DNA of 64,000 bases, from the NCBI GenBank assembly GCA_049513715.1, contig JBEKVV010000003.1, forward strand, positions 96,001 to 160,000, given 5' to 3'. The stretch's first letter is position 1; each line of letters begins with the position of its first letter. The stretch is from Candidatus Bathyarchaeia archaeon. Its GTDB lineage: Archaea > Thermoproteota > Bathyarchaeia > 40CM-2-53-6. Position numbers and translations under genes: made by a program. The notes below the pieces were generated by a model. It searched no databases. It saw nothing but the letters and a program-made list of their open reading frames with translations, and was not told where the DNA came from. This document shows positions 37,579 to 54,955 of the stretch, one piece after another.

Positions 37579-38556
37579 CTAGGTTTTGCTGAGCTGTTTC
37601 ACCGCATCGTTCAAAGCAGGTATTATTTGGTATAGGTCTGCCACTACACCGTAATCGCTGAACTCGAAGATTGGAGCCTTCGGGTCATTGTTGACCGCTA
37701 CGATTATTCTACTATTTCTGATTCCTGTGAGATGCTGAATTTGGCCTGAGATTCCGAAGGCAAAGTACAATTTCGGGCTGACCTTCTGGCCTGAAAGGCC
37801 TACGTATTGCTCCTCCGGCAACCAACGCAAATCCTCCGCTATGGGCCTAGAACATCCAATTACTCCCCCAACCATCTGAGCAAACTGTTCCAACATGGCC
37901 ATATCCTCCTTCTTCCTGACCCCCCGCCCAAATGAAACAATGATTGGCGCGTCAGCGAGTTTAACTCCCTTCGCAGTTTTCGGCCTACTCTCAACCAACT
38001 TTGTGGTTGATGGCTTCACATTAGGCTCGACTCTCACGACCTCCCCCTTTCGCGTGGAGTCTGCAGCGAGTGGAACGAAAAGTCCCCTGGGTACCGTAGC
38101 TACTTGCGGTGTCGACCTGCAGATCTGCGTCTCAACGAGATTACCGCCCAAGGTGATTCTGTCCATCAATAGGAATTTCTTCTCAGCGTCGACTTCCAAG
38201 CGAGTTACTTCAGTCACGCAACCAGTCTTCAACCGCTCAGACAAGCGCGGGGCAAACTCTAGCCCATTCCTGGTGGCACCTATGAGGAGTATGTCTGGTT
38301 TCTGTTCAGCCGCCAGATTCGCCATTGCGTCAGTGTATGTATCCACGTTGAAGACATCCAGCGCCGGGTTGTTCAGCACGAACACTTTGTCAGCACCATG
38401 CTGAACGTAGCCCTGAGGATCCTGTCCTGAGCCAATGGAAACCGCTACCAGTTGCGTACCTAACTGATTTGCTAATGCTCTCCCCTTCCCGAGCAACTCG
38501 AAAGCCAGCTGTGATACCTCCGAGAATACCCAGACCCCTCCGTGTTCTTGTGACAT
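37579..38556 (-). CDS. etfA: Electron transfer flavoprotein alpha subunit
   Basis: IIVSFGRG, GCSRP, VGLSGQKVSPKLY, GISGQIQHLTG, APIF. Confidence 0.93.
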   Translation of the reverse strand: MSQEHGGVWVFSEVSQLAFELLGKGRALANQLGTQLVAVSIGSGQDPQGYVQHGADKVFVLNNPALDVFNVDTYTDAMANLAAEQKPDILLIGATRNGLEFAPRLSERLKTGCVTEVTRLEVDAEKKFLLMDRITLGGNLVETQICRSTPQVATVPRGLFVPLAADSTRKGEVVRVEPNVKPSTTKLVESRPKTAKGVKLADAPIIVSFGRGVRKKEDMAMLEQFAQMVGGVIGCSRPIAEDLRWLPEEQYVGLSGQKVSPKLYFAFGISGQIQHLTGIRNSRIIVAVNNDPKAPIFEFSDYGVVADLYQIIPALNDAVKQLSKT

Positions 38557-38558
38557 AC

Positions 38559-39353
38559 CTAACTCGCCTTGAGAACCCCTTCCTGAATGAGAGCCTTCAC
38601 GAGCTTAGGAGCAATCTCCCTCGCCTCACCTTGAAACATTACTCGCTTTCTGTCCCCAACTGAAACTGTGCCCCTTAGGACTTCCACCAGAGCCCCATTG
38701 AATCCAAGCTCCTCCGCGCTTAGGTGCAAGTCTTCGGAAGTCCATGTTTTCATGGGTTTCTTGGAAGCAGCCATGATCGCCATGAGCGTTGGGAGGCGTG
38801 GTTCGTTGATCTCCCTCACAACAGAAACCAAGCAGGGTAGCTTTCCCTCCACTACTTGCCGCTCGTTCTCTAGGTCCCTCTCAGCCGTAATCTTTGTTCC
38901 TTCCACGGTGATCTTGGAGGCGTAAGTGATCTGCGGCAGATTGCATATTTCCGCCAACCTTGGGCCGACCTGGAAGGCGAACAAGTCCTCAGAGTACGCG
39001 CCGCACAGGATCAGGTCGTAATCCAAGATGTTCGTGACTGCTGCCGCCAAGACGTTTGCCACGGCGTGCGCGTCGGAGCCCTCGAACAACGGATCGCTTA
39101 GCAGGTACCCTTCGTCAGCCCCCATGGCCAAAGCTTCTCTAAGCGCCTCCTTGGCGTCAGGCGAACCCATAGTAATAACGGTGATTTTGCCGCCATGCTT
39201 CTCCTTTATCCTGACTGCTTCTTCAATGGCGTTCTTGTCGGATTCGCTGATGACCCTTGGAACGCCTTGGGTGACTATGGTCTTGGTTGACTTGTCGACC
39301 CTTAGTCCTTCAGTCTGAAGAACATGCTTCGCGAGCACTATGACGTGTAGCAT
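38559..39353 (-). CDS. etfB: Electron transfer flavoprotein beta subunit
   Basis: DKNAIEEA, REALAMGAD, QVGPRLAE, INEPRLP. Confidence 0.93.
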   Translation of the reverse strand: MLHVIVLAKHVLQTEGLRVDKSTKTIVTQGVPRVISESDKNAIEEAVRIKEKHGGKITVITMGSPDAKEALREALAMGADEGYLLSDPLFEGSDAHAVANVLAAAVTNILDYDLILCGAYSEDLFAFQVGPRLAEICNLPQITYASKITVEGTKITAERDLENERQVVEGKLPCLVSVVREINEPRLPTLMAIMAASKKPMKTWTSEDLHLSAEELGFNGALVEVLRGTVSVGDRKRVMFQGEAREIAPKLVKALIQEGVLKAS

Positions 39354-39495
39354 CGATCATCACAGCCCAATCACCCTCAACAAAACGTCTGGACTTAAGA
39401 ATTGCGAAGCAACCTGATTAACAAGGCCGTCATGTTGAGTCGCCTAAATTTTCGGCTTCGGTCTCGGCAAGAAGTATGCGAAGTTTGGAGCGGGG

Positions 39496-40698
39496 CTATT
39501 CCCATTTTTCCCAAGGGACGAATTCTCTACCCAGCAATTGCAGTGCTATGACGATTTTCTGGGCACTTCTAGTGCCTTCGGCGATGACCGCCTGCCTGAC
39601 TACTCGGAAGACTTGTTGAACATCGTATTCCGTGGTTGTTCCAAGCCCCCCATACCATTCGAGGACATCGCTTACAGCCTTAACGCAGTGCTCGGACGCC
39701 ACAAGTTTCGCCGTGGACGCGCCCATCATCGCGTCGAAGAACGAGGCTTTCCCTTTGTGGTACTGGTCGATGAGCCATGCAGCCCGATAGCAGAGCCACT
39801 TGGCCGCTTGAACGTTCGAGTAGTCTTCTGCAAGTTCAAATTGAATGCCTTCATGGGCGCCGATGGGTCGACCGAACGCTTTCCTTTGTCTTATGTATTC
39901 GATCCCTTTTTCAAGAGAAACTTCGGCTGCTGCGACGATGCTCATGGTCGTTGGAACTCGCGCGTGAACAAATGATTCGTAGGTCATCTGGTATCCGGCT
40001 CCCTCGAACCCGACGAGGTAACGTTCTGGGACCCGTGTGTTCTCATACCTGATTCCGCCGATGTCTATTCCCATTCCGGTGTAGTTGGAAGTGGTAATTC
40101 CGTTTGAACTGGACGGAATGTAGAGCAGGCTCATGCCTTTACTTCCCAACTCTGGTCGCGTCTTGACTGAGGTGATGTATCCTCCTCCGTACTTCACAAC
40201 CTCTGGGACGCAGCTGAGACAGATCTTCTCCCCATTGACCACGTACTCTCCGTCGGTTTTCTTCGCCGTTGTGGTTATGGCCGTGAAGTCCGTTCCGCAA
40301 CTTGGCTCAGTGGAGTGTAACGGCGTCACCCAACCATCCTTCACGATTCTTGGAAGAATCTCATCTTTCAACTCTGCATTGCCATAGACTGAGAGCAGGC
40401 GCGCGCATGAAGCACCGTACCATGCGGCCAGGCCCGCGAAGCCGGTGGCGTCACCGCGCGTCAATTCCTCGACTGCGATGATGAAGGTAACGTAATCAGA
40501 ATTCGCACCACCATACTCCGAAGGAAGTAGCAGACCGAAGAAGCCGGCGTCTGTGAGGGCTTTGTGCACTTCCGGCGTGAGAATCCTAGCCTGAGTTAAT
40601 TCCTTGGCTCTCGGTGCAACTGCTTTGCTCATCAGTTCTCGAATACTTCTTCGGAAGAGTTCTTGCTCTTCCGTGAAAGTGAATTCTAATGGCATCAC
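39496..40698 (-). CDS. Acyl-CoA dehydrogenase family protein
   Basis: PSEYGG, STEPSCGTD, YVVNGEK, RKAFGRPI, YGGLG, IAEGT. Confidence 0.92.
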   Translation of the reverse strand: MMPLEFTFTEEQELFRRSIRELMSKAVAPRAKELTQARILTPEVHKALTDAGFFGLLLPSEYGGANSDYVTFIIAVEELTRGDATGFAGLAAWYGASCARLLSVYGNAELKDEILPRIVKDGWVTPLHSTEPSCGTDFTAITTTAKKTDGEYVVNGEKICLSCVPEVVKYGGGYITSVKTRPELGSKGMSLLYIPSSSNGITTSNYTGMGIDIGGIRYENTRVPERYLVGFEGAGYQMTYESFVHARVPTTMSIVAAAEVSLEKGIEYIRQRKAFGRPIGAHEGIQFELAEDYSNVQAAKWLCYRAAWLIDQYHKGKASFFDAMMGASTAKLVASEHCVKAVSDVLEWYGGLGTTTEYDVQQVFRVVRQAVIAEGTRSAQKIVIALQLLGREFVPWEKWE

Positions 40699-40875
40699 AT
40701 AACCTCCTTACTTCATTTTTTTCCTTTGAACTCGGGTTTTCTTTTTGACATGAATGCTGAGACGCAGAAATGAGAAATTGAAGGTGGACTAATATACGGT
40801 ATGGTTCTAATGCGCGTTCGATCCTCAGATGCAACCAGCAATTGAGGAACCGTAGGATGTGGAGCTGGGCACCTC

Positions 40876-41304
40876 TTGTTCGAGATTCCATCTTTCATCG
40901 CTGGGCTCATCGCTTTCCTCTTCGTCTTTCTGCTGATGGGGATGTTGTTCTTTGTTCTCAGAGAGGAGAGAGACAAGACGATGCCGTCGTTGAACACTCT
41001 TGAACCTACTGACTTGGTGAGATTAGAGAATCCTCTTTCATCCGTTGATGCTCCATTCGTTGCGATCATTACGCTGGTAACTCTGGAAGTCGCACTGGAA
41101 GTATTGATAGTTGTCAGCGCCCTTCAAGGAATAGGATCGATTGCTATGGGGACCATGCTCGCGGTCGCAACATTCCTTGCAGCAGCCATCTTGGCAGTCT
41201 ACAGAAGCGCCTTCATGAGCGATGCGTTCACGAGAAAACCTCGGTTGGAGACGGTGGCCGCGCGCCAGCTCGAGAAAGCTCGTCAGAGTGATGAGCATGA
41301 GTGA
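40876..41304 (+). CDS. Three-TM membrane protein, first gene of the Rieske/cyt b operon
   Basis: Three hydrophobic segments; its stop overlaps the Rieske start. Confidence 0.7.
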   Translation: MFEIPSFIAGLIAFLFVFLLMGMLFFVLREERDKTMPSLNTLEPTDLVRLENPLSSVDAPFVAIITLVTLEVALEVLIVVSALQGIGSIAMGTMLAVATFLAAAILAVYRSAFMSDAFTRKPRLETVAARQLEKARQSDEHE

Positions 41305-41935
41305 GAAGATCGCTCCCGATTCTGGAAAGAAAGCGCGGCATTCGGTTAGCAGACGTCACTTTATCCAGATGATGGTTGCCGTAGGTTCCTTGGGAACCGT
41401 CGCCTCCTTTCTAACACTTCTTACGTCTCTCCTACCAGGCTCAGGAACTGGTGAGCAACAGGGCGAAGTTGACAACACCTTCCGGTACGGTCCAGAAAAG
41501 GGAACTTGGTATTCCGACAAGTCAGGGACTGAGGTGAAGGTGGAGGATTTCGATCAGGTCGGAAAGGGTGCGGGAGTCCTTTGGCGCGGTAATATCCCGG
41601 CGATTCTCATCCGCGTTGATGAAAGTAAGCTTCGGGGCGCAACATCGAACAGCGGATTGATTGCCTTTTCGAGCACCTGCACGCATCTCTGCTGCATAGC
41701 CACGTGGCACCTAGACCGACCAAGCGAGGACGTCCTCTTCTGCAGATGCCATGACGGCATCTTCGATCCGTATGATATTGTAAAAGACATCATGCCGAAT
41801 GGTGTCGAGTATAAAGGAGCGAGAGTAGTCGGTGGACCACCGCCGAGAGCTGCGCCGATCATCCCTGTTGAAATAAAGGATGGAAAAGTCGCCGGCGTTC
41901 CCTCGAATCTAGAGACCTATGCGTACTGTGGGTGA
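41297..41935 (+). CDS. Rieske 2Fe-2S subunit of a Rieske/cytochrome b complex
   Basis: Tat motif SRRHFI plus TM; CTHLCC and CRCHDGIF boxes; GGPPPR. Confidence 0.92.
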   Translation: MSEKIAPDSGKKARHSVSRRHFIQMMVAVGSLGTVASFLTLLTSLLPGSGTGEQQGEVDNTFRYGPEKGTWYSDKSGTEVKVEDFDQVGKGAGVLWRGNIPAILIRVDESKLRGATSNSGLIAFSSTCTHLCCIATWHLDRPSEDVLFCRCHDGIFDPYDIVKDIMPNGVEYKGARVVGGPPPRAAPIIPVEIKDGKVAGVPSNLETYAYCG

Positions 41936-43281
41936 ATCACACAATGACCACACGCGGAAAGAGAGTCTACGAATGGCTCGACAGGCGCCTTCTCATCTCT
42001 CCGCTCATTGCGAAAACTCAAAGAACAATCAACTTTGCGTTACCGAGCACGCTCACAAGACAGAATAGATCACGAGTCTTCTGGTTCATTTATCCCTACT
42101 ATTATGCAGGAGCTATCACAGCATTTCTCGCTATCCTGCAAGGAATCACAGGACTCCTTCTCGCCTTCAACTACGTTCCATCCGCCGTCGGCGCCCCAGG
42201 AACACCAACACAGGCCTACTTGAGCGTCCAAAACATCATGAGAACCGTTCCGCTCGGAGCCTTGATCAGAGGAATGCACCAGTGGGGCGCCAACCTTCTA
42301 GTCGCCGCCGTAACCGTCCACGCGTTCTGGGCGTTTTTCCGCAGCCCGTACAGAGTCGGCCGCGAACTGACTTGGTTCCTAGGCGTTTTCAGCCTGGGCT
42401 TGGCACTTGCGTACTCGTTCTCAGGTTATCTCCTTCCGTGGGACCAGTTGGGCTACTGGGCCGCAACTATAAGCATCCAGATAATAAGAGCAATCCCACT
42501 CTTGGGGGACTTCCTAGCTCAGATCCTCTTGGGCGGAACAGGATTATCGGCGACCACACTGACAAGAATCTACTTCTACCACGTGAGTCTCCTCCCTGTT
42601 GTCGCCCTTGTTCTTGTCGGGGCGCATATGCTACTAGTCATCCTTCAGGGAGTGTCGGAACCTGAAGAAGCATGGAAGACCAGAAGCGAAAAGCAAGCAG
42701 CTCCCCTCTTCGGTCCATTGTTTCCACAACAGATTGCTCCAGTCTTGTTAGTCTCTCTGGTTACGCTAGGGATAGTTCTGCTATTGAGTGCATTCGCCGT
42801 CCAATTTCCGGGCGACCCGGCGAACAAGTTCCTGACGCCGCAATTCATAGTTCCAGAGTGGTACTTCCTGTGGGCATATGGACTACTCAAATGGGTAGGA
42901 TGGATCTACGACATGGTACATTTTGCACCTCCATCCGCAGTCTTCGGCGTCGATCTCCTAAGCGCGAAGGTGGTTGGGATCCTATTCGCCGCGGTATTGT
43001 TCCTCGTCCTTCTACTCCTACCCATAATTGACCGTGGCAAAGAAATCCGGGCGCTTCGGAGACCACTGAAGACAGCCATAGGCGTGTGGGCGATCGGATT
43101 TCTGGCCACCCTGACGCTCTATGCCTTGAATGAGATTCTATCAGTAGATCTTTCTATTCCAATCGATACGCTGAATCTGATTCTCGGATCCATCGTAATC
43201 ACTGTACCCCTCGTCGTAGCCGCACCCGTCTACTTGATGCTCCACCAACATGTGGCGAGGGGGCTTCATAGGAGGGAATGA
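41932..43281 (+). CDS. Cytochrome b (b and subunit IV fused)
   Basis: HQWGAN...H, GYLLPWDQLGYWA, FYH...AH, PEWY. Confidence 0.93.
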   Translation: MNHTMTTRGKRVYEWLDRRLLISPLIAKTQRTINFALPSTLTRQNRSRVFWFIYPYYYAGAITAFLAILQGITGLLLAFNYVPSAVGAPGTPTQAYLSVQNIMRTVPLGALIRGMHQWGANLLVAAVTVHAFWAFFRSPYRVGRELTWFLGVFSLGLALAYSFSGYLLPWDQLGYWAATISIQIIRAIPLLGDFLAQILLGGTGLSATTLTRIYFYHVSLLPVVALVLVGAHMLLVILQGVSEPEEAWKTRSEKQAAPLFGPLFPQQIAPVLLVSLVTLGIVLLLSAFAVQFPGDPANKFLTPQFIVPEWYFLWAYGLLKWVGWIYDMVHFAPPSAVFGVDLLSAKVVGILFAAVLFLVLLLLPIIDRGKEIRALRRPLKTAIGVWAIGFLATLTLYALNEILSVDLSIPIDTLNLILGSIVITVPLVVAAPVYLMLHQHVARGLHRRE

Positions 43282-43282
43282 A

Positions 43283-45193
43283 ATGGATCTCATCAGAAAT
43301 ATCTTTCAGTTTGTTCCTCTGCCCTTCGTTATTGCTTGGTGGATAATTGCAGCAGTCACAGTCTACCTGTTCTTTGTCGGCCTCAGAAGACACGTGCGTG
43401 CTTGGATGAAAGGAAGACCTGAGAAGGTCTCGGGTACTCGGCTTTCTAGGTTAGGTAGATTCGTCTCGCTTGGTCTTGGGCAGTCAAAGGTTCTCAACAA
43501 GAAGTACAACGGAATCAACCATTTGTTGATCTCGATAATCGGCTTCCTGTTGCTCCTCGGAATGTTCTTCCCAGTTCTCGAAACAATCGTAGGCTACGTC
43601 GCCTTACTCTTTGGGGTTGGATTGGTACTGCTGGAATTCAGGCGCCTCAAAACCACCGAGCCGAAGCTTGAGACCGCCTGGGAGGACTCGTTCGTATACG
43701 GCGTAATTGTCGCGATGGCAGTTTCAGGGTTCCTCATGATGGGTGTCAATACTTGGGCTTGGAGGTCTCCGGTAGGCAGCCTGCTCTCTCCACTCTTTGG
43801 TTCACTGGGGCCGAAGGCGCTTGTTGAAGTCTACCCGAGCCTATGGTTGCTTCACTCTGCGCTTGTCTTCTCACTCATTGCCTACATACCAAACTCACGC
43901 CTGATACACCTAATCACTTCTCCCCTCAACATCTACTACACGCCAACGGCCGTGAAAGGCGAGTTATCAACGCCCTTCGATCTGAAGCAGATGATGGAGA
44001 CGGGAAACTTCGATGTCAAGATCGGAGCCACCGAAATTGATGACTTTACTTGGCGCCAGAAGCTCAGCTTCGACTCATGCACCCTGTGCAAACGCTGCAC
44101 AGACGCCTGCCCAGCAACAACCGCCGGAACGAAACTATCACCCATGCACCTCATACTCAAACTAAAGAATCATGAATTAGCTCTCGACACCGATCGACAT
44201 CTCCATGGAGATGTAATAGATGCAGAAGAGCTTTGGGCGTGTACTACTTGTCGTGCGTGCGTGCAGGAATGCCCTGTCCTCATTCAACACGTCGAGGCCA
44301 TCTATGATATGCGTAGGCATCTAATGGCTGAAGGAAAGGTGGACCGAAAAAAAAGAGACCTCATCACTTACCTCTCGACCGCCGGCAACCCATACGGGCT
44401 CCCCAGCTCAGACCGAATGAAATGGGCAGACGGGCTGGACGTCAAGCTGTGGGGCGAAGAACCTGACCAAGAAATCCTGTACTGGGTTGGATGCGCAGGA
44501 TCATACGACATGAGGAACCAAATGGTTTCACGCGCCTTCGTCAAAATCATGAGAACAGCAGGCGTGAGATTCGGTGTCCTAGGAAACGAGGAAAAATGCA
44601 ACTGTGAAGTTGCCCGCCGAGTCGGAGAGGAGGGAAGATTCCAGCAAGCAGCGACGGAATTGATAGAGCTGATGAACAAGCGCGGTGTGAAGAAGATTGT
44701 CACCCAATGTCCACACTGCTTCAACACTTTCAAGAACGAGTATCCGAGATTCGGCGCAGAGTTCGAAGTCGTGCACCACACGCAACTCATATCGAAACTG
44801 ATACGCGATGGGAGGCTGAGGCTCAAGGAAGGAAAGGGGCAGAGCATTGCATTCCATGATCCTTGCTACTTGGGCAGATACAACGAAGAGTACGAAGCTC
44901 CGCGCGAAACAATTCGAACCATCTCGGCCGGAAAACTGGTGGAATTGCCTAGATGTCGTGCGAAGAGTTTCTGTTGCGGCGGCGGAGGTGGAAACACGTG
45001 GTATACCGTGGAAGCCGAGAAGAAACCTAGCGTGATAAGGATCGAGGAGGCGCGTAAGGTAGGCCCTAGCATCCTTGCAGCAGCATGTCCGTATTGCATC
45101 TCCATGTTCGAGGACGCCTCAAAGGCCCTAGGAACATCGGAGAGCATGCCAATCAAAGATATAGCCGAGTTAGTCGTTGAAGCATTAGAGTAA
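43283..45193 (+). CDS. Membrane Fe-S oxidoreductase (FadF/HdrD-like; probable ETF:quinone oxidoreductase)
   Basis: N-terminal TM domain with His residues; CTLCKRCTDACP and CTTCRACVQECP; two CCG domains (GCAGSYD, CPHC, HDPCYLGR, FCCGGGGG, ACPYC). Confidence 0.9.
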   Translation: MDLIRNIFQFVPLPFVIAWWIIAAVTVYLFFVGLRRHVRAWMKGRPEKVSGTRLSRLGRFVSLGLGQSKVLNKKYNGINHLLISIIGFLLLLGMFFPVLETIVGYVALLFGVGLVLLEFRRLKTTEPKLETAWEDSFVYGVIVAMAVSGFLMMGVNTWAWRSPVGSLLSPLFGSLGPKALVEVYPSLWLLHSALVFSLIAYIPNSRLIHLITSPLNIYYTPTAVKGELSTPFDLKQMMETGNFDVKIGATEIDDFTWRQKLSFDSCTLCKRCTDACPATTAGTKLSPMHLILKLKNHELALDTDRHLHGDVIDAEELWACTTCRACVQECPVLIQHVEAIYDMRRHLMAEGKVDRKKRDLITYLSTAGNPYGLPSSDRMKWADGLDVKLWGEEPDQEILYWVGCAGSYDMRNQMVSRAFVKIMRTAGVRFGVLGNEEKCNCEVARRVGEEGRFQQAATELIELMNKRGVKKIVTQCPHCFNTFKNEYPRFGAEFEVVHHTQLISKLIRDGRLRLKEGKGQSIAFHDPCYLGRYNEEYEAPRETIRTISAGKLVELPRCRAKSFCCGGGGGNTWYTVEAEKKPSVIRIEEARKVGPSILAAACPYCISMFEDASKALGTSESMPIKDIAELVVEALE

Positions 45194-45212
45194 TTGTAAT
45201 CGAACAGGCCGA

Positions 45213-46259
45213 GTGATGTTGAAGAACATTAAGGTAGTCCAATATGGCTTGGGGCCGATCGGACTCGGAATCGTTGACGTCCTTCTAGCTAGACCGTGGG
45301 TTCAGTTGGTCGGCGCAATAGACATCGACAAGAAAAAAGTTGGAAAAGATGTGGGCCAACTCCTTGAGAACCCTAAGAACACAGGAGTGATCGTTAGCGA
45401 TAAGGCGAGTGACGTACTGAAACGTACATCTCCCCACGTTGTGACACACGCCACTTCCTCATACATGAAGACAGTACACCCTCAAGTTTCGGAACTCGTC
45501 CGTTATGGCGTGAATGTTGTTTCAACAGCTGAAGAGCTCTCGTATCCTTTTGTCAAGTACCCAGATTTGGCCAAAGAACTAGACGACCGCGCCAAGGAGA
45601 AGAAAGTGGTCGTGCTTGGGACGGGAGTGAATCCTGGCTTTCTGCTTGACACTCTGGTAGTAGTCATGAGCGGAGTATGCCAGAAAGTCAATTCGATTCG
45701 GGCTGAGCGAGTAGTAGACGCGTCTAGACGAAGGCTGCCACTTCAAAGGAAGATTGGAGCAGGACTGACCCCCGCAGAGTTCGAAAAGAAGGTCGCAGAA
45801 GGATCGATAAAACACGTAGGCTTGCCAGAATCTGTGGGTCTCATTGCCCTAGCAATGGGATGGAAAGTAGGCGAAATCCAAGAGAGAATCACCCCAATAG
45901 TTGCCGAGAAAGATGTGAGCAGTGAGTTCTTGAAAGTTCCAGCTGGCGCTGTCGCAGGTGTACGGCAGGTCGCGAAAGGAATCCTAGCCGGTTTCGAATT
46001 AGTTGTGCTTGATTTGAGAATGTACTTGGGCGCCCAGAATCCGCATGATTCGATTTTGATAGATGGTCTTCCACCTGTCGATATGACGATTCGGGGAGGA
46101 GTTCATGGAGATATCGCAACGCCTGCGACCATCGTCAACTCGCTTCCGAAGATTGAGCGTTTGGAACCAGGCTTGCGAACGATGGTTGACCTCCCACCTA
46201 TCGCACCTTGCCTGAATTTCCCTGAAAGCGACCGGTCAGTTATGCTCAAGACATTCTAG
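45213..46259 (+). CDS. 2,4-diaminopentanoate dehydrogenase-like NAD(P)-dependent amine dehydrogenase
   Basis: YGLGPIG, STAEELSYP, GTGVNPGF, HVGLPES, GDIAT. Confidence 0.82.
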   Translation: MMLKNIKVVQYGLGPIGLGIVDVLLARPWVQLVGAIDIDKKKVGKDVGQLLENPKNTGVIVSDKASDVLKRTSPHVVTHATSSYMKTVHPQVSELVRYGVNVVSTAEELSYPFVKYPDLAKELDDRAKEKKVVVLGTGVNPGFLLDTLVVVMSGVCQKVNSIRAERVVDASRRRLPLQRKIGAGLTPAEFEKKVAEGSIKHVGLPESVGLIALAMGWKVGEIQERITPIVAEKDVSSEFLKVPAGAVAGVRQVAKGILAGFELVVLDLRMYLGAQNPHDSILIDGLPPVDMTIRGGVHGDIATPATIVNSLPKIERLEPGLRTMVDLPPIAPCLNFPESDRSVMLKTF

Positions 46260-46410: not shown

Positions 46411-47718
46411 CTAACCTTTGACAGATTGTTCAATGGTTGATGTCAGGTGCTCTATGTCGGCGCCTGTGTGCGCATAACTAATTGAGGCGTGAAGGTTGTC
46501 GGGCAGTATCATCAGTATTCCGTTTTCAAGCAGGCTGGCAAACAGTTTCTTGGATAGTTTCTCATCGCTAGTTGCATAGCACGATGTGTCCAGGATTGGC
46601 TTTTTCGCTGTTGTATGAATGCCTACGAGTGATTTGATTCCGGTTGCTTGAGCTGAGACTTTGTTCTCCTCGAAGATACGGTTCAAGTCATTCCGGCATT
46701 TGTCTCCTAGCTTGCCGATGTGGTCGTAGACCGGCGAGTGCTCGAGAGTGTTGATTGTGGCTAACCCAGCCGCGAGTGTAATTGCATTGCCTGCGAAGGT
46801 TCCACCGTGATAGGCGTAGTCTAATCCCGAGAACTTGGTGTGGTCCATTCGCTCCACTACTTCCCGACGACCGCAAACGGCACCGATTGGGAAACCTCCG
46901 CCGATTATTTTTCCTAAGACGGTTACATCCGGCTTGACTCCAAAGTATCCTTGCGCCCCACCCAATCCAAGCCTGAAACCTGTGATCACCTCATCGAAAA
47001 CCAGCAAGGCACCTGTATCGTCGCAGTATTCGCGCAATCCCTTGAGGAACTCCTTTTGTGCGGGTATCATGCCACCCGCTCCGAGAACGGGTTCCAGGAT
47101 TACGCATGCCAACTTTTCCCCTTTTACTCGTTCAAGGAAACCAGTCAGGTCATTGTAGGGCACGACGGTCGTATCCTGCTGGGACGATGACGTGATGCCC
47201 CCCGAAGGGGGTTTGTCAAATGGCGGTTTCATCGCTACATGCAATGGATCGTAAGCGCCGTGCCAGCAACCTTCAAACTTCGCGATCATAGAGCGCTTCG
47301 TGAATGTTCTTGCCAAACGAATTGCGAAGAAATCCGCTTCACTCCCGGAACTAGTGTAACGAACAAGCTCTGCACTGGGGACATGCTTGCAGAGAGATTC
47401 AGCGTGCGTCACCTCCAATTCATGTACGAGGCCGAAATGCCAGCCGCTCTCAGCTTGAGTCTTCACAGCTTGCATTACTACAGGGTGTGCATGACCCAGA
47501 ATCATTGCGAAATGAGTACACCAGTAATCCGTGTACGAGTTACCATCAATGTCGGTCAGTTTGGCGCCTTTGGCTTCTTTGACGAAGAACGGGTACGGCT
47601 CGAAATATCTGTTCTTGTAGGAAACTCCTGCGGGCTCAACTTTCCTAGCGCGCTGGAACATTGCCCGAGACCTTGGAGTGCGCTTTGAGTATTGCGACTC
47701 AACGAGAGAAGGCTTCAA
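46411..47718 (-). CDS. Class III PLP aminotransferase (glutamate-1-semialdehyde aminomutase-like)
   Basis: SSGSEA, KFEGCWHG, FDEVITGFR, GKIIGGGFP, GTFAGN. Confidence 0.9.
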   Translation of the reverse strand: MKPSLVESQYSKRTPRSRAMFQRARKVEPAGVSYKNRYFEPYPFFVKEAKGAKLTDIDGNSYTDYWCTHFAMILGHAHPVVMQAVKTQAESGWHFGLVHELEVTHAESLCKHVPSAELVRYTSSGSEADFFAIRLARTFTKRSMIAKFEGCWHGAYDPLHVAMKPPFDKPPSGGITSSSQQDTTVVPYNDLTGFLERVKGEKLACVILEPVLGAGGMIPAQKEFLKGLREYCDDTGALLVFDEVITGFRLGLGGAQGYFGVKPDVTVLGKIIGGGFPIGAVCGRREVVERMDHTKFSGLDYAYHGGTFAGNAITLAAGLATINTLEHSPVYDHIGKLGDKCRNDLNRIFEENKVSAQATGIKSLVGIHTTAKKPILDTSCYATSDEKLSKKLFASLLENGILMILPDNLHASISYAHTGADIEHLTSTIEQSVKG

Positions 47719-49634: not shown

Positions 49635-50735
49635 TTGCGTGGACACATGCACCAAGTCTTCGAAGACATCTGGAAAATCTATCCTGAAAATATGCTCAAG
49701 AACCGCACGTGGCATTGGTGGTGGTGGATTCACTTTTTCGAGAATCCGGACGCCCCCGAATTCCCTAGGCAGCTCATGATCCTTTGGGGATCCAGGAATT
49801 GCAGAAAAGTTCGCGTGAACGATTATCGTTGGGAACCAACAATCCCAATGCAGATCGACGGGAAACGCACTGCGTTTGAATCAATAGTCGCCTCCTGGTA
49901 TTATGATGGAAAAAGAATGCACGATCCTCTTGTCCTCGATCATGGGAAGACTGAAACTGAACGAGATGACCACTCTGGAAAAATCAGAATGGTAGGTAAC
50001 AAAGGAGTCTACTCATACGGTGGAAGCAGCGCGGATTTCTGGCTGAACGTGGACACGGACAGTGTCGTAATAGAGCTGTCAATGAAGGTGTGGAAAGACG
50101 TTATGGCGGAACTGGTGGCCACTGGAAGGAACTTCATTGGAAACATGGGATATTCAATGCTCAAATACAGAGGCCTGTCGTCATCGGGAAGGATCCGAGT
50201 CGGCGAAACCGAGACCTCCGTTACGGGTAGATCGTATTTCCAGAAAGTGCGAATATCCTCGATAACCCCCTGCTGGTACTGGGGCACAGTACAGTGGGAC
50301 AATGGTGCTTACTTGCAGTACTTCTTGCCGCACATCGGGATACCAATGCTTAGGCGGTCAAGATCCCACGAGAGTTCGATGGACTGGGGTGAAAAAATGG
50401 TTTCAAAGACTCTCAACTTCTACGATCCCGAGGAGGGGAAGGAGCATTTCATGGAAGACATTAAGATAACCAAGCGCTACGCGAATGACCTGCCCATATT
50501 CAATGTGAGCGCATCCTCTGGTCAAAATGAGATCAGCATAGAGATGGAAACATACGCGAGATGTTGCTGGAACATATCGCAACCCTTGATATGGCCGATC
50601 TGGTCAGGGATATTCTACAACGAGTACCCCGCTAAGGTCAGGAATTTCAAATTCAAAAGCAATACTCGCAACGCAAGCAATGACGACTTTGGCAAGAGCT
50701 ATTGCAACTGCGAGCACACGTGGGGTACGGTTTAG
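49635..50735 (+). CDS. Trp-rich hypothetical protein (possible double beta-barrel)
   Basis: TWHWWWWIHFF, SYFQKV, PCWYWG, EHTWG. Confidence 0.75.
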   Translation: MRGHMHQVFEDIWKIYPENMLKNRTWHWWWWIHFFENPDAPEFPRQLMILWGSRNCRKVRVNDYRWEPTIPMQIDGKRTAFESIVASWYYDGKRMHDPLVLDHGKTETERDDHSGKIRMVGNKGVYSYGGSSADFWLNVDTDSVVIELSMKVWKDVMAELVATGRNFIGNMGYSMLKYRGLSSSGRIRVGETETSVTGRSYFQKVRISSITPCWYWGTVQWDNGAYLQYFLPHIGIPMLRRSRSHESSMDWGEKMVSKTLNFYDPEEGKEHFMEDIKITKRYANDLPIFNVSASSGQNEISIEMETYARCCWNISQPLIWPIWSGIFYNEYPAKVRNFKFKSNTRNASNDDFGKSYCNCEHTWGTV

Positions 50736-52885: not shown

Positions 52886-53956
52886 TCATTTTCTGCTACG
52901 AGCGGGACGACCGCCCATGGTCATAGCCATCACGGCCTTTTGCACGTGCAATCTGTCCTCTGCCTGTTCGAAGTACAAGGAGTAATCCGCGTTGTCTATC
53001 ACGTCGTCCGTAACTTCTTGGCCTCGGTCTGCGGGGCCGCAATGCATGTACTTGCCTTTGCTGGTCAAGTCCATCATTTCTTGCGTGCAAATCCAGTCTT
53101 TGAATTTGTCCTGGTACGTGGTAGCGCCGGTCTTGTCGAGTTCTGCGCTGTGCGGGGGGAAGTAGTTCTTCGGAGACCACGCTTTCGGGTAGACTACGTC
53201 TGCCCCTTCAAAGGCCTCTTTCATATCGTTGACGACGCGGAATCCTCCACCGTATTTGTCCGCGTTCGCTTTCGCTGCGTCGAGCACAACATCTTCAAGT
53301 TCAAACCCCTGAGGGTGCGCGAGAACAACATCCATTCCCAAATGAGTCCCAATCAGGACCTCGCTTTGGGGAACGGCGAGTGGTTTGAGGCCCCCTGAGT
53401 ATGCGTACGAAACGACAAGTTTCTTTCCAGCCAGCTTTGGTATCGCGGCCCTCATGGCCTGGGCATCGGCTAGGGCTTGGAATGGATGGTACATGTCATC
53501 CTCCATGTTTAGGACCGGAATGGTGGCGTGCTTTGCGAACTCTTTGACGACCTTGTGGCCTCTGCCAATGTTCCATTTGGCAGCGTCGCCGTAGATCCTG
53601 ATTGCAATAGCATCACCGTACCGACTTAGCACTCTGCTTACGTCGGATATGGCTTCAGTCTGGTATGCCACCATATCTTCTGGGAGGGCCGGAGTGTAGA
53701 CGTCTTGTGGGCTGAGAAAGTGCGCATGGCCCCCGAGCTGGTACATGCCAGCTTCGAACGAGTTGCGCGTCCTCAGCGACCGGTTGTAAAAGAACATGAA
53801 CAGAGTCTTACCAGGAAGGTAATGGTGCGGTTTACGCGCCCGGAACATTTTCCTTAAGACGTCAGCCGCGTTCAGAACCTTCTTGATCTCCTCTTGCGAG
53901 AAATCGTTTGTATCTAGGAAATGCTTTCCTTTCAGATCGCCAACGAATGATGCCAA
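52886..53956 (-). CDS. Atypical transcarbamylase (AOTCase/YgeW-like)
   Basis: SLRTR, HPFQALAD, YAYSGGLKPLAVPQS, YPKAW, MHCGPA. Confidence 0.88.
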   Translation of the reverse strand: MASFVGDLKGKHFLDTNDFSQEEIKKVLNAADVLRKMFRARKPHHYLPGKTLFMFFYNRSLRTRNSFEAGMYQLGGHAHFLSPQDVYTPALPEDMVAYQTEAISDVSRVLSRYGDAIAIRIYGDAAKWNIGRGHKVVKEFAKHATIPVLNMEDDMYHPFQALADAQAMRAAIPKLAGKKLVVSYAYSGGLKPLAVPQSEVLIGTHLGMDVVLAHPQGFELEDVVLDAAKANADKYGGGFRVVNDMKEAFEGADVVYPKAWSPKNYFPPHSAELDKTGATTYQDKFKDWICTQEMMDLTSKGKYMHCGPADRGQEVTDDVIDNADYSLYFEQAEDRLHVQKAVMAMTMGGRPARSRK

Positions 53957-53992
53957 AATGAATCCCTCGGTTTGTCACGGTCACTATTCGAA

Positions 53993-54955
53993 TTAAGCTT
54001 TTAGCACCACGACGTGCGTTCCAGTTCTACCTTCTAGGGCCTCCGTGAGGCTTTCGAGTTTGGCGATTATCGCTCTCTCTCCACCGCTTTCAACGAATCT
54101 GATGGCGGCCTCGATTTTCGGTGCCATGCTGCCTTCTTTGAAATGGCCCTCTTTGAGGTAGTTCCTCAGTTTCCCGGAGGTGATTTCATGAATCATTTCT
54201 TGTTGAGGAGTTCCGTAGTTGATGTAAGCTCCATCTATGTCAGTTAGAATCACGAAAATGTTGGCTCCAATCAAAGTGGCCAAACGTTGCCCTCCCAAGT
54301 CTTTGTCAATGACTGCTTCTACGCCGACAGCGAGGTCGTTCTCTTCTATTATTGGGATTCCTCCGCCACCGGTTGATATAACTACGAACCCGGCATCGAC
54401 GAGTGCCTTGATTGCCGATCGCTCTGCGATGACTTTAGGGTCGGGTGATGGGACTACTCGCCGGTAACCGCGGCCGGCATCCTCCTTGATAACCAAGTTC
54501 GGTTTTTCTTGCCTCAGCTTGGCAGCTTCATCTTTCGAGTAGAATGGGCCAATTGGTTTTGTTGGGTTCTGGAACGCAGAGTCATGTTTGTCGACAATGA
54601 CTCGCGTTACTACAGCCACAACATATTTGTCGATTCCGCGGGTTTTTAATTCGTTCCTCAGCGCCTGCTCAATCATATAGCCAATGAACCCTTGTGTCTC
54701 TGCCCCGCAAGCATCCAGAGGAAAGGCTGGCACTATTGCTTTTGCTGCTTCATGCCTGAGAAGCGTTGCGCCGACCTGCGGCCCATTGCCATGAGTTAGG
54801 ACTACTTTGTAGCCCTGCTCGATTAGGTCAGCAATCTTTGGGACAGTACCCTTTGTGTTTTGGTATTGTTCCTCGAACGTGCCCTTCTGACCACGTTGAA
54901 GGAGTGCGTTGCCGCCCAGTGCGATTACGACGAGCTTCTCTGCCAACTCTCTCAC
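53993..54955 (-). CDS. arcC: Carbamate kinase
   Basis: ALGGNAL, THGNGPQVG, NPTKPIGPF, YRRVVPSP, EAVIDKD, GSMAPK. Confidence 0.95.
   Translation of the reverse strand: MRELAEKLVVIALGGNALLQRGQKGTFEEQYQNTKGTVPKIADLIEQGYKVVLTHGNGPQVGATLLRHEAAKAIVPAFPLDACGAETQGFIGYMIEQALRNELKTRGIDKYVVAVVTRVIVDKHDSAFQNPTKPIGPFYSKDEAAKLRQEKPNLVIKEDAGRGYRRVVPSPDPKVIAERSAIKALVDAGFVVISTGGGGIPIIEENDLAVGVEAVIDKDLGGQRLATLIGANIFVILTDIDGAYINYGTPQQEMIHEITSGKLRNYLKEGHFKEGSMAPKIEAAIRFVESGGERAIIAKLESLTEALEGRTGTHVVVLKA

Follow-up and report, generated by a model that had tools for sequence, protein, structure and literature searches.

Besides EtfD of mycobacteria, Syntrophus EMO and Bacillus FadF are known oxidoreductases of the EtfD type. 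In mycobacteria, a pathway from acyl-CoA dehydrogenases (ACADs) via the electron-transfer flavoprotein (ETF) and EtfD to menaquinone and complex III has been demonstrated, and EtfD of M. smegmatis was described to drive proton pumping via the menaquinone pool in dependence on butyryl-CoA (PMC13083937). In muscle, an assembly of ETFDH, an ETF:quinone oxidoreductase, with complex III has been reported (PMC10896730). The absence of a cytochrome c is normal for archaeal Rieske/cytochrome b complexes (PMC3509893), and cytochrome-c-free archaeal complexes as well as Rieske/cytochrome b operons with cytoplasmic oxidoreductases have been published (PMC3509893; PMC5600118; PMC12954380; for Methanoperedens, PMC4683180). 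Here we describe a locus of a Bathyarchaeia archaeon (genome G000, 2.79 Mb, 99% complete), located in a stretch of 64,000 nucleotides that was analysed as a whole (C3:96001-160000, in the following the window). The conserved unit consists of four genes, namely those for a DUF7318-like membrane protein with three transmembrane segments (3-TM protein), a Tat-anchored Rieske protein, a fused cytochrome b and an EtfD/EMO/FadF-type oxidoreductase (EMO), and stands beside genes for a canonical EtfB and EtfA. All parts of this cassette are known; what appears to be new is that the oxidoreductase is encoded inside the Rieske/cytochrome b operon.

EtfD (9OJN; PMC13083937) shares with the cassette EMO the NarI-like membrane domain, the two cubane clusters, the D1/D2 ligands and the positions of His241 and Arg306, and its gene likewise adjoins those for EtfAB. 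It is, however, longer (1042 aa vs 636 aa), and the cassette EMO is encoded directly behind cytochrome b, a linkage that the covered parts of the EtfD account do not report. The haloarchaeal halocyanin-Rieske/cytochrome b cluster (PMC3509893; subfamily N, PMC5600118) resembles the cassette in that it has no cytochrome c1/f, includes an upstream hypothetical membrane protein, keeps only the first Gly of CxGG and totals eight helices. Its cytochrome b is split, its Rieske protein is of high potential and a halocyanin gene lies in the cluster, whereas the cassette has a fused cytochrome b, a Gly/Phe Rieske protein and no halocyanin gene, and only the cassette has an ETF:quinone oxidoreductase behind cytochrome b; the cytochromes b that haloarchaea carry on plasmids share only 33-35% identity with that of the cassette. 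The operons of the anammox Rieske/cytochrome b complexes (PMC12954380, PMC5600118) also include a cytoplasmic Fe-S oxidoreductase, but their partner is an NAD(P) oxidoreductase while that of the cassette has the EtfD/HdrD fold and a haem domain of its own, and the cassette furthermore has no c-type cytochromes and a Rieske protein of predicted low potential. In the mammalian ETFDH-complex III-COQ2 assembly (PMC10896730), an ETF:quinone oxidoreductase is tied to complex III and a prenyltransferase is nearby; yet ETFDH is not homologous to EtfD (PMC13083937), and what the cassette shows is a linkage of genes.

No published description of this way of encoding the oxidoreductase was found in the literature searched, with most subscription journals and the operon maps of Fig. 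S1 in PMC5600118 outside the search. The arrangement thus appears to be undescribed, as the initial annotation had supposed. The cassette would offer a small, four-gene prokaryotic test of the quinol channelling from an ETF:quinone oxidoreductase to complex III that was reported for muscle ETFDH.

Conservation of the four-gene cassette

The arrangement is not a product of chance, as it recurs in further genomes and on metagenome contigs. We compared 11 close genome loci and 79 metagenome loci (L171, identical to the window, being excluded from all counts), which are close kin and hence not independent tests. In all 11 genome loci the EMO gene, split in one of them (L043), follows that for cytochrome b, and the 3-TM gene is present in all nine that reach that far; etfB comes after EMO in nine, is divergent in one and lies off the contig in one. 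Of the metagenome loci that could be assessed for it, 39/40 have EMO after cytochrome b, the sole exception being a fusion-type locus (see below), 68/74 have the 3-TM gene before the Rieske gene and 58/63 have cytochrome b after the Rieske gene. The postulated co-encoding of a Rieske/cytochrome b complex with an ETF:quinone oxidoreductase is hence kept in the relatives, as is its tie to EtfBA. The distance between the cytochrome b and EMO genes was 2-14 nt wherever measured (33/33), and that between EMO and etfB 45-63 nt (27/27). Behind EMO, 29 testable metagenome loci show etfB (21), an amine dehydrogenase gene (7) or a second EMO gene (1), while etfB lies divergent upstream of the cassette in 18 metagenome loci.

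The Rieske protein is present in 13 of 401 Bathyarchaeia genomes, among them 9/10 of genus g5 and 1/22 of the other members of the host's genus, and the named relatives whose cytochrome b is 74-80% identical are Bathyarchaeia, on which the assignment of the host to this group is based. In a phylum-wide sample its profile detected the host only (1/401 genomes), although this sample misses rare members, since locus L054 places the Rieske clade in Geothermarchaeales as well.

All eight open reading frames (ORFs) of the initial annotation were recovered in place and with the domains it had named (ORF, Pfam and NCBIfam checks):

37579-38556, minus strand: EtfA (PF01012 and PF00766), conserved cassette neighbour, located after etfB in the relatives' loci
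38559-39353, minus strand: EtfB of the canonical, non-bifurcating type (PF01012), conserved cassette neighbour
39496-40698, minus strand: ACAD with four ACAD Pfam domains and no NCBIfam model above cut-off
40876-41304, plus strand: DUF7318-like 3-TM membrane protein, core gene 1 (PF24002 below cut-off, three hydrophobic segments)
41297-41935, plus strand: Tat-anchored Rieske protein, core gene 2 (RRHF followed by a transmembrane anchor; boxes CTHLCC and CRCHDGIFD)
41932-43281, plus strand: long cytochrome b, core gene 3, a b6-like half fused to a subunit IV with the eighth helix (PF00033, PF13631 and PF00032 over cut-off)
43283-45193, plus strand: EtfD/EMO/FadF-type oxidoreductase, core gene 4, NarI-like with 2x[4Fe-4S] and 2xCCG (9OJN homology)
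45213-46259, plus strand: flanking gene of the Ord-like amine dehydrogenase family, 2,4-diaminopentanoate-dehydrogenase-like (PF19328 over cut-off)

On the plus strand the 3-TM and Rieske genes overlap by 8 nt and those for the Rieske protein and cytochrome b by 4 nt, followed by gaps of 1 nt between cytochrome b and EMO and of 19 nt between EMO and the amine dehydrogenase. The tight packing claimed for both gene runs applies to this strand and to etfB/etfA (gap of 2 nt), but not to the ACAD gene, which is separated from etfB by 142 nt. Counts of sigma-70 promoters and terminators did not exceed those of shuffled sequences (8 vs 6.3 and 6 vs 8.5), with a model that is unsuited to archaea. A CxxCH motif is found in none of the eight proteins, and a Pfam search of the locus gave no cupredoxin or oxidase domain, which bears out the earlier statement that c-type cytochromes, blue-copper proteins and oxidases are missing from it.

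Cofactor ligands and sister complexes

Like the gene order and its conservation, the cofactor ligands and the type of the ETF can be read from the sequences. The best solved relative of EMO is M. smegmatis EtfD (9OJN, E 1e-95), which was also the top Foldseek match (E 4.8e-28, TM 0.54) of a modest model (pLDDT 63.6). EMO matches PF02665 (44.5 bits, cut-off 22.9), Fer4 and twice PF02754. All 17 cluster Cys residues and His583 of EtfD, named as D1-D4 ligands in PMC13083937, map to EMO (C266/269/272/276, C320/323/326/330, C404/439/476/479, C528/564/565/602/605 and H478) and are invariant in 31 rows. H209 aligns to the haem b ligand His241, and the propionate partner Arg306 also falls on a conserved residue. 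H80, invariant in 31/31 rows, is the probable second haem ligand matching His78, the pairwise alignment having ended short of it. At the menaquinone site of EtfD, the position of Phe230 is taken by Leu in EMO, with a Phe two residues earlier, and the Phe85 region lies outside the alignment. The gene-4 product is therefore of the EtfD/EMO/FadF type and a predicted ETF:menaquinone oxidoreductase; homology, ligand alignment and Foldseek all point to the identity first proposed for the membrane Fe-S protein.

The EMOs of the cassettes group together in a single clade (21 rows, support 100/99) apart from the ordinary EMOs (8 rows, 99/97). In 22/22 rows of the cassette clade, helix 2 has lost about 22 residues from its outer end that eight ordinary paralogues have kept, and a C-N-C motif with an invariant extra Cys stands where EtfD has C-T-G. 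Cassette EMO is 49-55% identical to ordinary EMOs and 23% to the fused HdrD-type module of the sister complexes described below; an origin of EMO by fission of that fused arm was rejected on account of the latter value. The host genome has a single EMO, six ACAD matches and three other ETF sets, two of which, by sequence inspection, adjoin FixC/FixX-like genes.

The ETF beside the cassette is likely canonical and non-bifurcating, because EtfB carries Leu124 at the position of A. fermentans Gly123, where Gly marks bifurcating ETFs (PMC12630350), and none of 45 cassette-linked EtfBs has Gly there but Leu or Gln instead. A bifurcating ETF was rejected on these grounds.

The Rieske protein has both boxes and the Cys pair that links them (TIGR01416, E 8.8e-08, below cut-off). 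In an alignment to the Thermus Rieske protein it shows Gly and Phe at the Ser and Tyr positions that set the potential, as do its relatives (Gly 83/83, Phe 82/83). As both potential-raising residues are missing, a potential below +200 mV is predicted by the rule from PMC3509893 and PMC12954380, a rule that can miss (PMC12954380). Box I of the protein (41297-41935) also contains one additional Cys (CTHLCC), and its C-terminus an invariant Tyr-Cys; these two Cys residues perhaps form a second disulfide.

The haem ligands of cytochrome b (H116, H130, H217 and H232) are invariant in 13 rows and the PEWY motif is present in 49/49 sequences. The haem-ci Cys is absent, YYAGA replacing YCLGG. As to the quinone-reducing (Qi) site, the protein reads MLLVILQGVSEP past the last haem His, and the positions that hold a His or Arg in bc1 or b6f have neither. 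With no cytochrome c1/f in the locus and no haem-ci Cys, the complex falls outside the bc1 and b6f types in the strict sense. The 3-TM protein is likely a structural subunit of this complex. It has no conserved His or Cys and reaches 23.4 bits with PF24002 (cut-off 27), its L054 counterpart 55.7; the DUF7318 family is also matched in Haloferax volcanii. In the ESM Atlas bacterial clusters scored best (0.89), a weak lead.

In a quick tree without bootstrap, the nearest cytochromes b (6 rows, SH-aLRT 95) are split, and their subunit IV continues, about 10 residues past its last helix, into a fused 2x[4Fe-4S] + 2xCCG module (L054, L055, L137). This subunit IV-HdrD fusion is not an assembly error, since it was seen in seven of the eight clusters returned by the search, from several sources. 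The clade accordingly has, as judged from these sequences, a cytoplasmic partner of one and the same Fe-S fold that comes in two forms, a fused HdrD-type module and a separate EMO. The fusion complexes (L054 of Geothermarchaeales, L055 of Bathyarchaeia) share with the cassette the order DUF7318-Rieske-cytochrome b, the Rieske boxes, a sister cytochrome b and the cytoplasmic module, but differ in that their cytochrome b is split, the module sits on subunit IV and HdrA follows instead of ETF; the L054 locus adds FrhB, MvhD, GcvH and a FAD oxidase, and genome G236 has cytochrome c maturation genes. No published description of the fusion complexes was found in the literature searched.

Several features of these relatives may be added. 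L054:123-12588 encodes DUF7318, Rieske and cytochrome b6, the subunit IV-HdrD fusion and then FrhB, HdrA, MvhD, HdrD, GcvH and a FAD-linked oxidase, and in genus g5 EMO/HdrD-like, GcvH-like and FAD-oxidase genes form clusters of their own that resemble its tail (L316, L317 and L318, from G036, G032 and G300). In a fusion-like relative, the gene for a membrane-anchored cytochrome with six CxxCH motifs lies directly upstream of those for the 3-TM and Rieske proteins (L138:2382-3161). The next-nearest relatives are short cytochromes b ending in QG-x-AEPH, one of them from a named Thermoplasmata; P0226 and P0228 have one or two blue-copper domains and P0222, P0224 and P0225 several Ig-like domains fused at the N-terminus.

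Electron flow, acceptors and rival explanations

From our point of view, the cassette is best described by forward flow through a quinone pool, a reading that we hold with moderate confidence. ACADs would reduce the neighbouring canonical ETF, and EMO would relay the ETF electrons through four Fe-S clusters and a haem b to a menaquinone-type carrier. The Rieske/cytochrome b complex, which works without a cytochrome c, would oxidise the resulting quinol again in a Q-cycle and hand the electrons to an acceptor on the outer face, in all probability either a blue-copper protein or a reductase of anaerobic respiration. The four membrane proteins would likely serve as paired entry and exit for a single quinone pool of low potential. 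The first three steps have been shown for the mycobacterial homologue and are expected here because ligands and gene order are conserved; the quinone, the direction of flow, the acceptor and co-transcription we infer. The potential of acyl-CoA is about -10 mV. With menaquinone at -80 mV (PMC4683180), transfer from ETF would proceed near or against equilibrium, so that it would be drawn onward by a quinol oxidiser of its own, which may be a reason to keep the two together, and a Rieske protein predicted to lie below +200 mV fits a low-potential quinone (PMC3509893, PMC12954380). Also in favour of forward flow, a relative of the window (L172) has a full beta-oxidation set between etfB and the cassette, and acceptor candidates are found in relatives, namely the fused blue-copper domains of P0226 and P0228 and the six-CxxCH cytochrome of L138.

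A genome-wide check for quinone synthesis, blue-copper proteins and oxidases found two halocyanin-like proteins away from the locus (C2:468041-468505 and C4:126938-128095), cytochrome bd and one full haem-copper enzyme in the host, and no menaquinone head-group pathway. The haem-copper enzyme (C9:7961-10183) has FWWGLDMIADG in place of W-x-x-GHPEVY, Asp for an active-site His and no Tyr, and its subunit II reads STEYSG without the CuA Cys. Such features characterise gNOR (PMC11214002); the sequence is thus of the gNOR type, and a role of this enzyme as O2 reductase was rejected. Of an A-type oxidase, a remnant of 70 residues persists (C1:315304-315513). In the host genome we found no cytochrome c maturation match (PF01578), no multi-CxxCH protein, no multicopper oxidase/NirK domain and, with the models used, no molybdopterin oxidoreductase. 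Both genes of its cytochrome bd-like pair (C1:83598-86433) match the subunit I model, as is common in the family. Three further Rieske/cytochrome b sets are encoded in the host: a CbsA-SoxL-SoxN-like set (C3:417446-420975), one with a CoxB-like cupredoxin and a haem O synthase-like gene (C1:753442-756909), and a set of the split b6 type that has the haem-ci Cys and lies directly upstream of genes for succinate dehydrogenase (C3:251144-256500).

The genomes compared are drafts, in which not found differs from absent. An intact O2-type haem-copper oxidase is present in 1 of 12 cassette genomes of the family (G017), and another genome carries one with four stops; haem-copper enzymes of the gNOR type were found in G032, G036 (two) and G330, and cytochrome bd occurs in 4/12. 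Among 47 other family genomes, 33 score E <1e-100 for the O2-type oxidase, the 30 best loci all having GHPxVY. Because most relatives with the cassette have no intact O2-type haem-copper oxidase, its holders probably respire something other than oxygen. Judging from its oxidase content, the family would be the soil/peat lineage called facultatively aerobic in PMC10321748 and PMC11619403. Cytochrome c maturation genes were found in 3/13 cassette or fusion genomes. An impression, based on PF00127 (2/10 genomes of genus g5), that cassette genomes have no cupredoxins was softened by matches to PF13473 (6/10). A menA-like gene is present in 28/79 metagenome loci.

A number of findings weigh against forward flow through a pool. 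In the 99%-complete host genome no menaquinone head-group pathway was found (MqnA/D not found, PF02621 0/1; menD none over cut-off), and its two MenA-like prenyltransferases both score below their cut-offs. The cassette locus contains no acceptor gene, a cupredoxin domain occurs in only 8/13 cassette or fusion genomes, and one 94%-complete genome (G034) gave no match for a haem-copper oxidase, cytochrome bd, a cupredoxin or cytochrome c maturation; it has molybdopterin enzymes with twin-Arg leaders. Cytochrome bd is a quinol oxidase and could bypass the Rieske protein. By direct oxidation of quinol, gNOR may do the same (PMC11214002), and the three other Rieske/cytochrome b sets render that of the cassette dispensable for generic quinol oxidation. 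No known quinone pathway was found in the Bathyarchaeia of PMC11697101 either, an article that concerns soluble Rieske proteins. Lastly, EMO is split in 1/11 genome loci (L043), and six of the 79 metagenome loci and genome G172 carry this Rieske protein without the 3-TM gene; the five of these orphan loci with enough flank show no cytochrome b.

Three other explanations have to be considered. As the main rival, one could imagine that EMO belongs to the Rieske/cytochrome b complex, bound to it like a further subunit, and that electrons are exchanged at the cytoplasmic face. Those of ETF might go straight to the site of quinone reduction, or the low-potential branch of a quinol bifurcation might be drawn off to ETF, an exchange of the kind proposed for those anammox complexes that have an NAD(P) oxidoreductase as subunit (PMC12954380, PMC5600118). 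The fusion of the Fe-S module to subunit IV in the nearest cytochrome b relatives speaks for such a subunit, as do the separate clade of the cassette EMO (100/99) with its loss of 22 residues at helix 2, the movement of the four genes as a block (in L158 the block lies between an ordinary emo gene and etfB) and the precedents in anammox bacteria and in the ETFDH-complex III-COQ2 assembly (PMC12954380, PMC5600118, PMC10896730). We nevertheless consider it unlikely, since EMO has a membrane domain and haem ligands of its own and needs no partner to reach quinone, its identity values (23% to the fused module vs 49-55% to ordinary EMOs) indicate a replacement rather than the same arm, a low-potential Rieske protein provides less driving force than the anammox proteins at +303/+335 mV (PMC12954380), and operon order alone is no proof of binding. 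Going one step further, one could speculate, with slightly less doubt, that one archaeal clade of complex III bears an exchangeable cytoplasmic Fe-S arm, an HdrD fusion in the sister complexes and a docked, trimmed EtfD here. The cassette would then encode a four-subunit ETF:acceptor oxidoreductase that wires beta-oxidation into the Q-cycle without oxygen and without reliance on a free quinone pool.

It has also to be asked whether the Rieske/cytochrome b operon simply landed beside an ordinary emo-etfBA group, so that the genes are merely co-located or co-regulated, or whether the complex III part has no working acceptor. An emo-etfB-etfA group without Rieske/cytochrome b is indeed usual in the host's genus (6/6 loci, and the cassette Rieske protein in 1/22 other members), orphan Rieske copies exist, and the loci are close kin. 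However, the cassette EMO belongs to a clade of its own common to two genera and differs from the ordinary EMO found at this place, its attachment persists in either orientation, the sister complexes carry the same Fe-S fold as a fusion and the catalytic motifs are intact in 49/49 cytochromes b, which renders mere co-location improbable. The transfer of electrons from menaquinol to enoyl-CoA would be slightly downhill. Quinol from a NADH-dehydrogenase-like complex or succinate dehydrogenase might feed EMO, ETF and enoyl-CoAs in reverse, as an electron sink or for biosynthesis, with the complex of Rieske protein and cytochrome b forming a parallel quinol outlet under the same anoxic conditions. 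This would accord with the O2-type haem-copper oxidase that is intact in only 1/12 cassette genomes, with the Nuo-like and sdh genes of the host (sequence inspection and Pfam), and with the mention of reversed beta-oxidation enzymes in archaea that have cytochrome bc complexes (PMC5600118). Yet the characterised homologue EtfD runs oxidatively (PMC13083937), the insert of L172 is the usual degradative set (acyl-CoA synthetase fragment, hydratase, dehydrogenase and thiolase) and the block-like movement of the four genes is left unexplained, so that we give reverse flow the smallest chance of all. Irrespective of the direction, the cassette poses a question of archaeal bioenergetics, as the genomes that hold it are mostly without an O2-type haem-copper oxidase, some show no recognised acceptor and in the host no known pathway to a quinone head group was found. 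The identity of quinone and acceptor would tell how Bathyarchaeia of peat and sediment respire electrons derived from acyl-CoA.

Neighbouring genes and origin of the local order

The initial annotation had envisaged all eight genes as a self-contained module, which the comparison did not support. The ACAD gene is absent from 11/11 genome loci and present in only 2/79 metagenome loci, and it was rejected as a core part for this reason. In L172, which is 88-94% identical, genes for a hydratase, a 3-hydroxyacyl-CoA dehydrogenase, an OB-fold protein, a thiolase and an acyl-CoA synthetase fragment lie between ACAD and the cassette, and the ACAD gene of the window is therefore probably lineage-specific and the remnant of an inserted beta-oxidation cluster.

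The amine dehydrogenase (NF040740, 302.7 bits vs a cut-off of 400; same superfamily as Ord by PF19328) is probably no part of the system either. In cassette-free genomes of the host's genus an ordinary emo-etfB-etfA group occupies the same place (6/6 loci examined), and in 5/6 of these loci, all without Rieske/cytochrome b, the amine dehydrogenase gene is divergent from emo; it comes to stand behind the cassette in one of the two orientations only, and as a core part it was thus rejected.

In genus g5 the 3-TM, Rieske, cytochrome b, EMO, etfB and etfA genes follow each other on a single strand, while in L158 the four-gene block is inverted between an ordinary emo gene and etfB. The window looks like L158 minus the ordinary emo, and if the latter was lost from such an order, the amine dehydrogenase gene would have come to lie behind the cassette by accident. 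In a further quick tree without bootstrap, EtfB of the window groups with the EtfBs of cassette-free loci (SH-aLRT 96).

The orphan Rieske genes (L144, L148, L150, L151, L155, L156, and L131 of G172) have transporter-like genes and one for a P-type ATPase-like protein as neighbours, and in L144 the Rieske gene is in frame with an ATPase-like ORF. Elsewhere in the window (46411-47718 and 52886-54955) we noted genes for a class III aminotransferase of the GSA-like kind, an ornithine carbamoyltransferase-like protein and a carbamate kinase. These genes accompany the amine dehydrogenase gene in relatives, which suggests that they form with it an amino-acid or amine catabolic group. An ORF of 366 aa at 49635-50735 has no Pfam or NCBIfam match.

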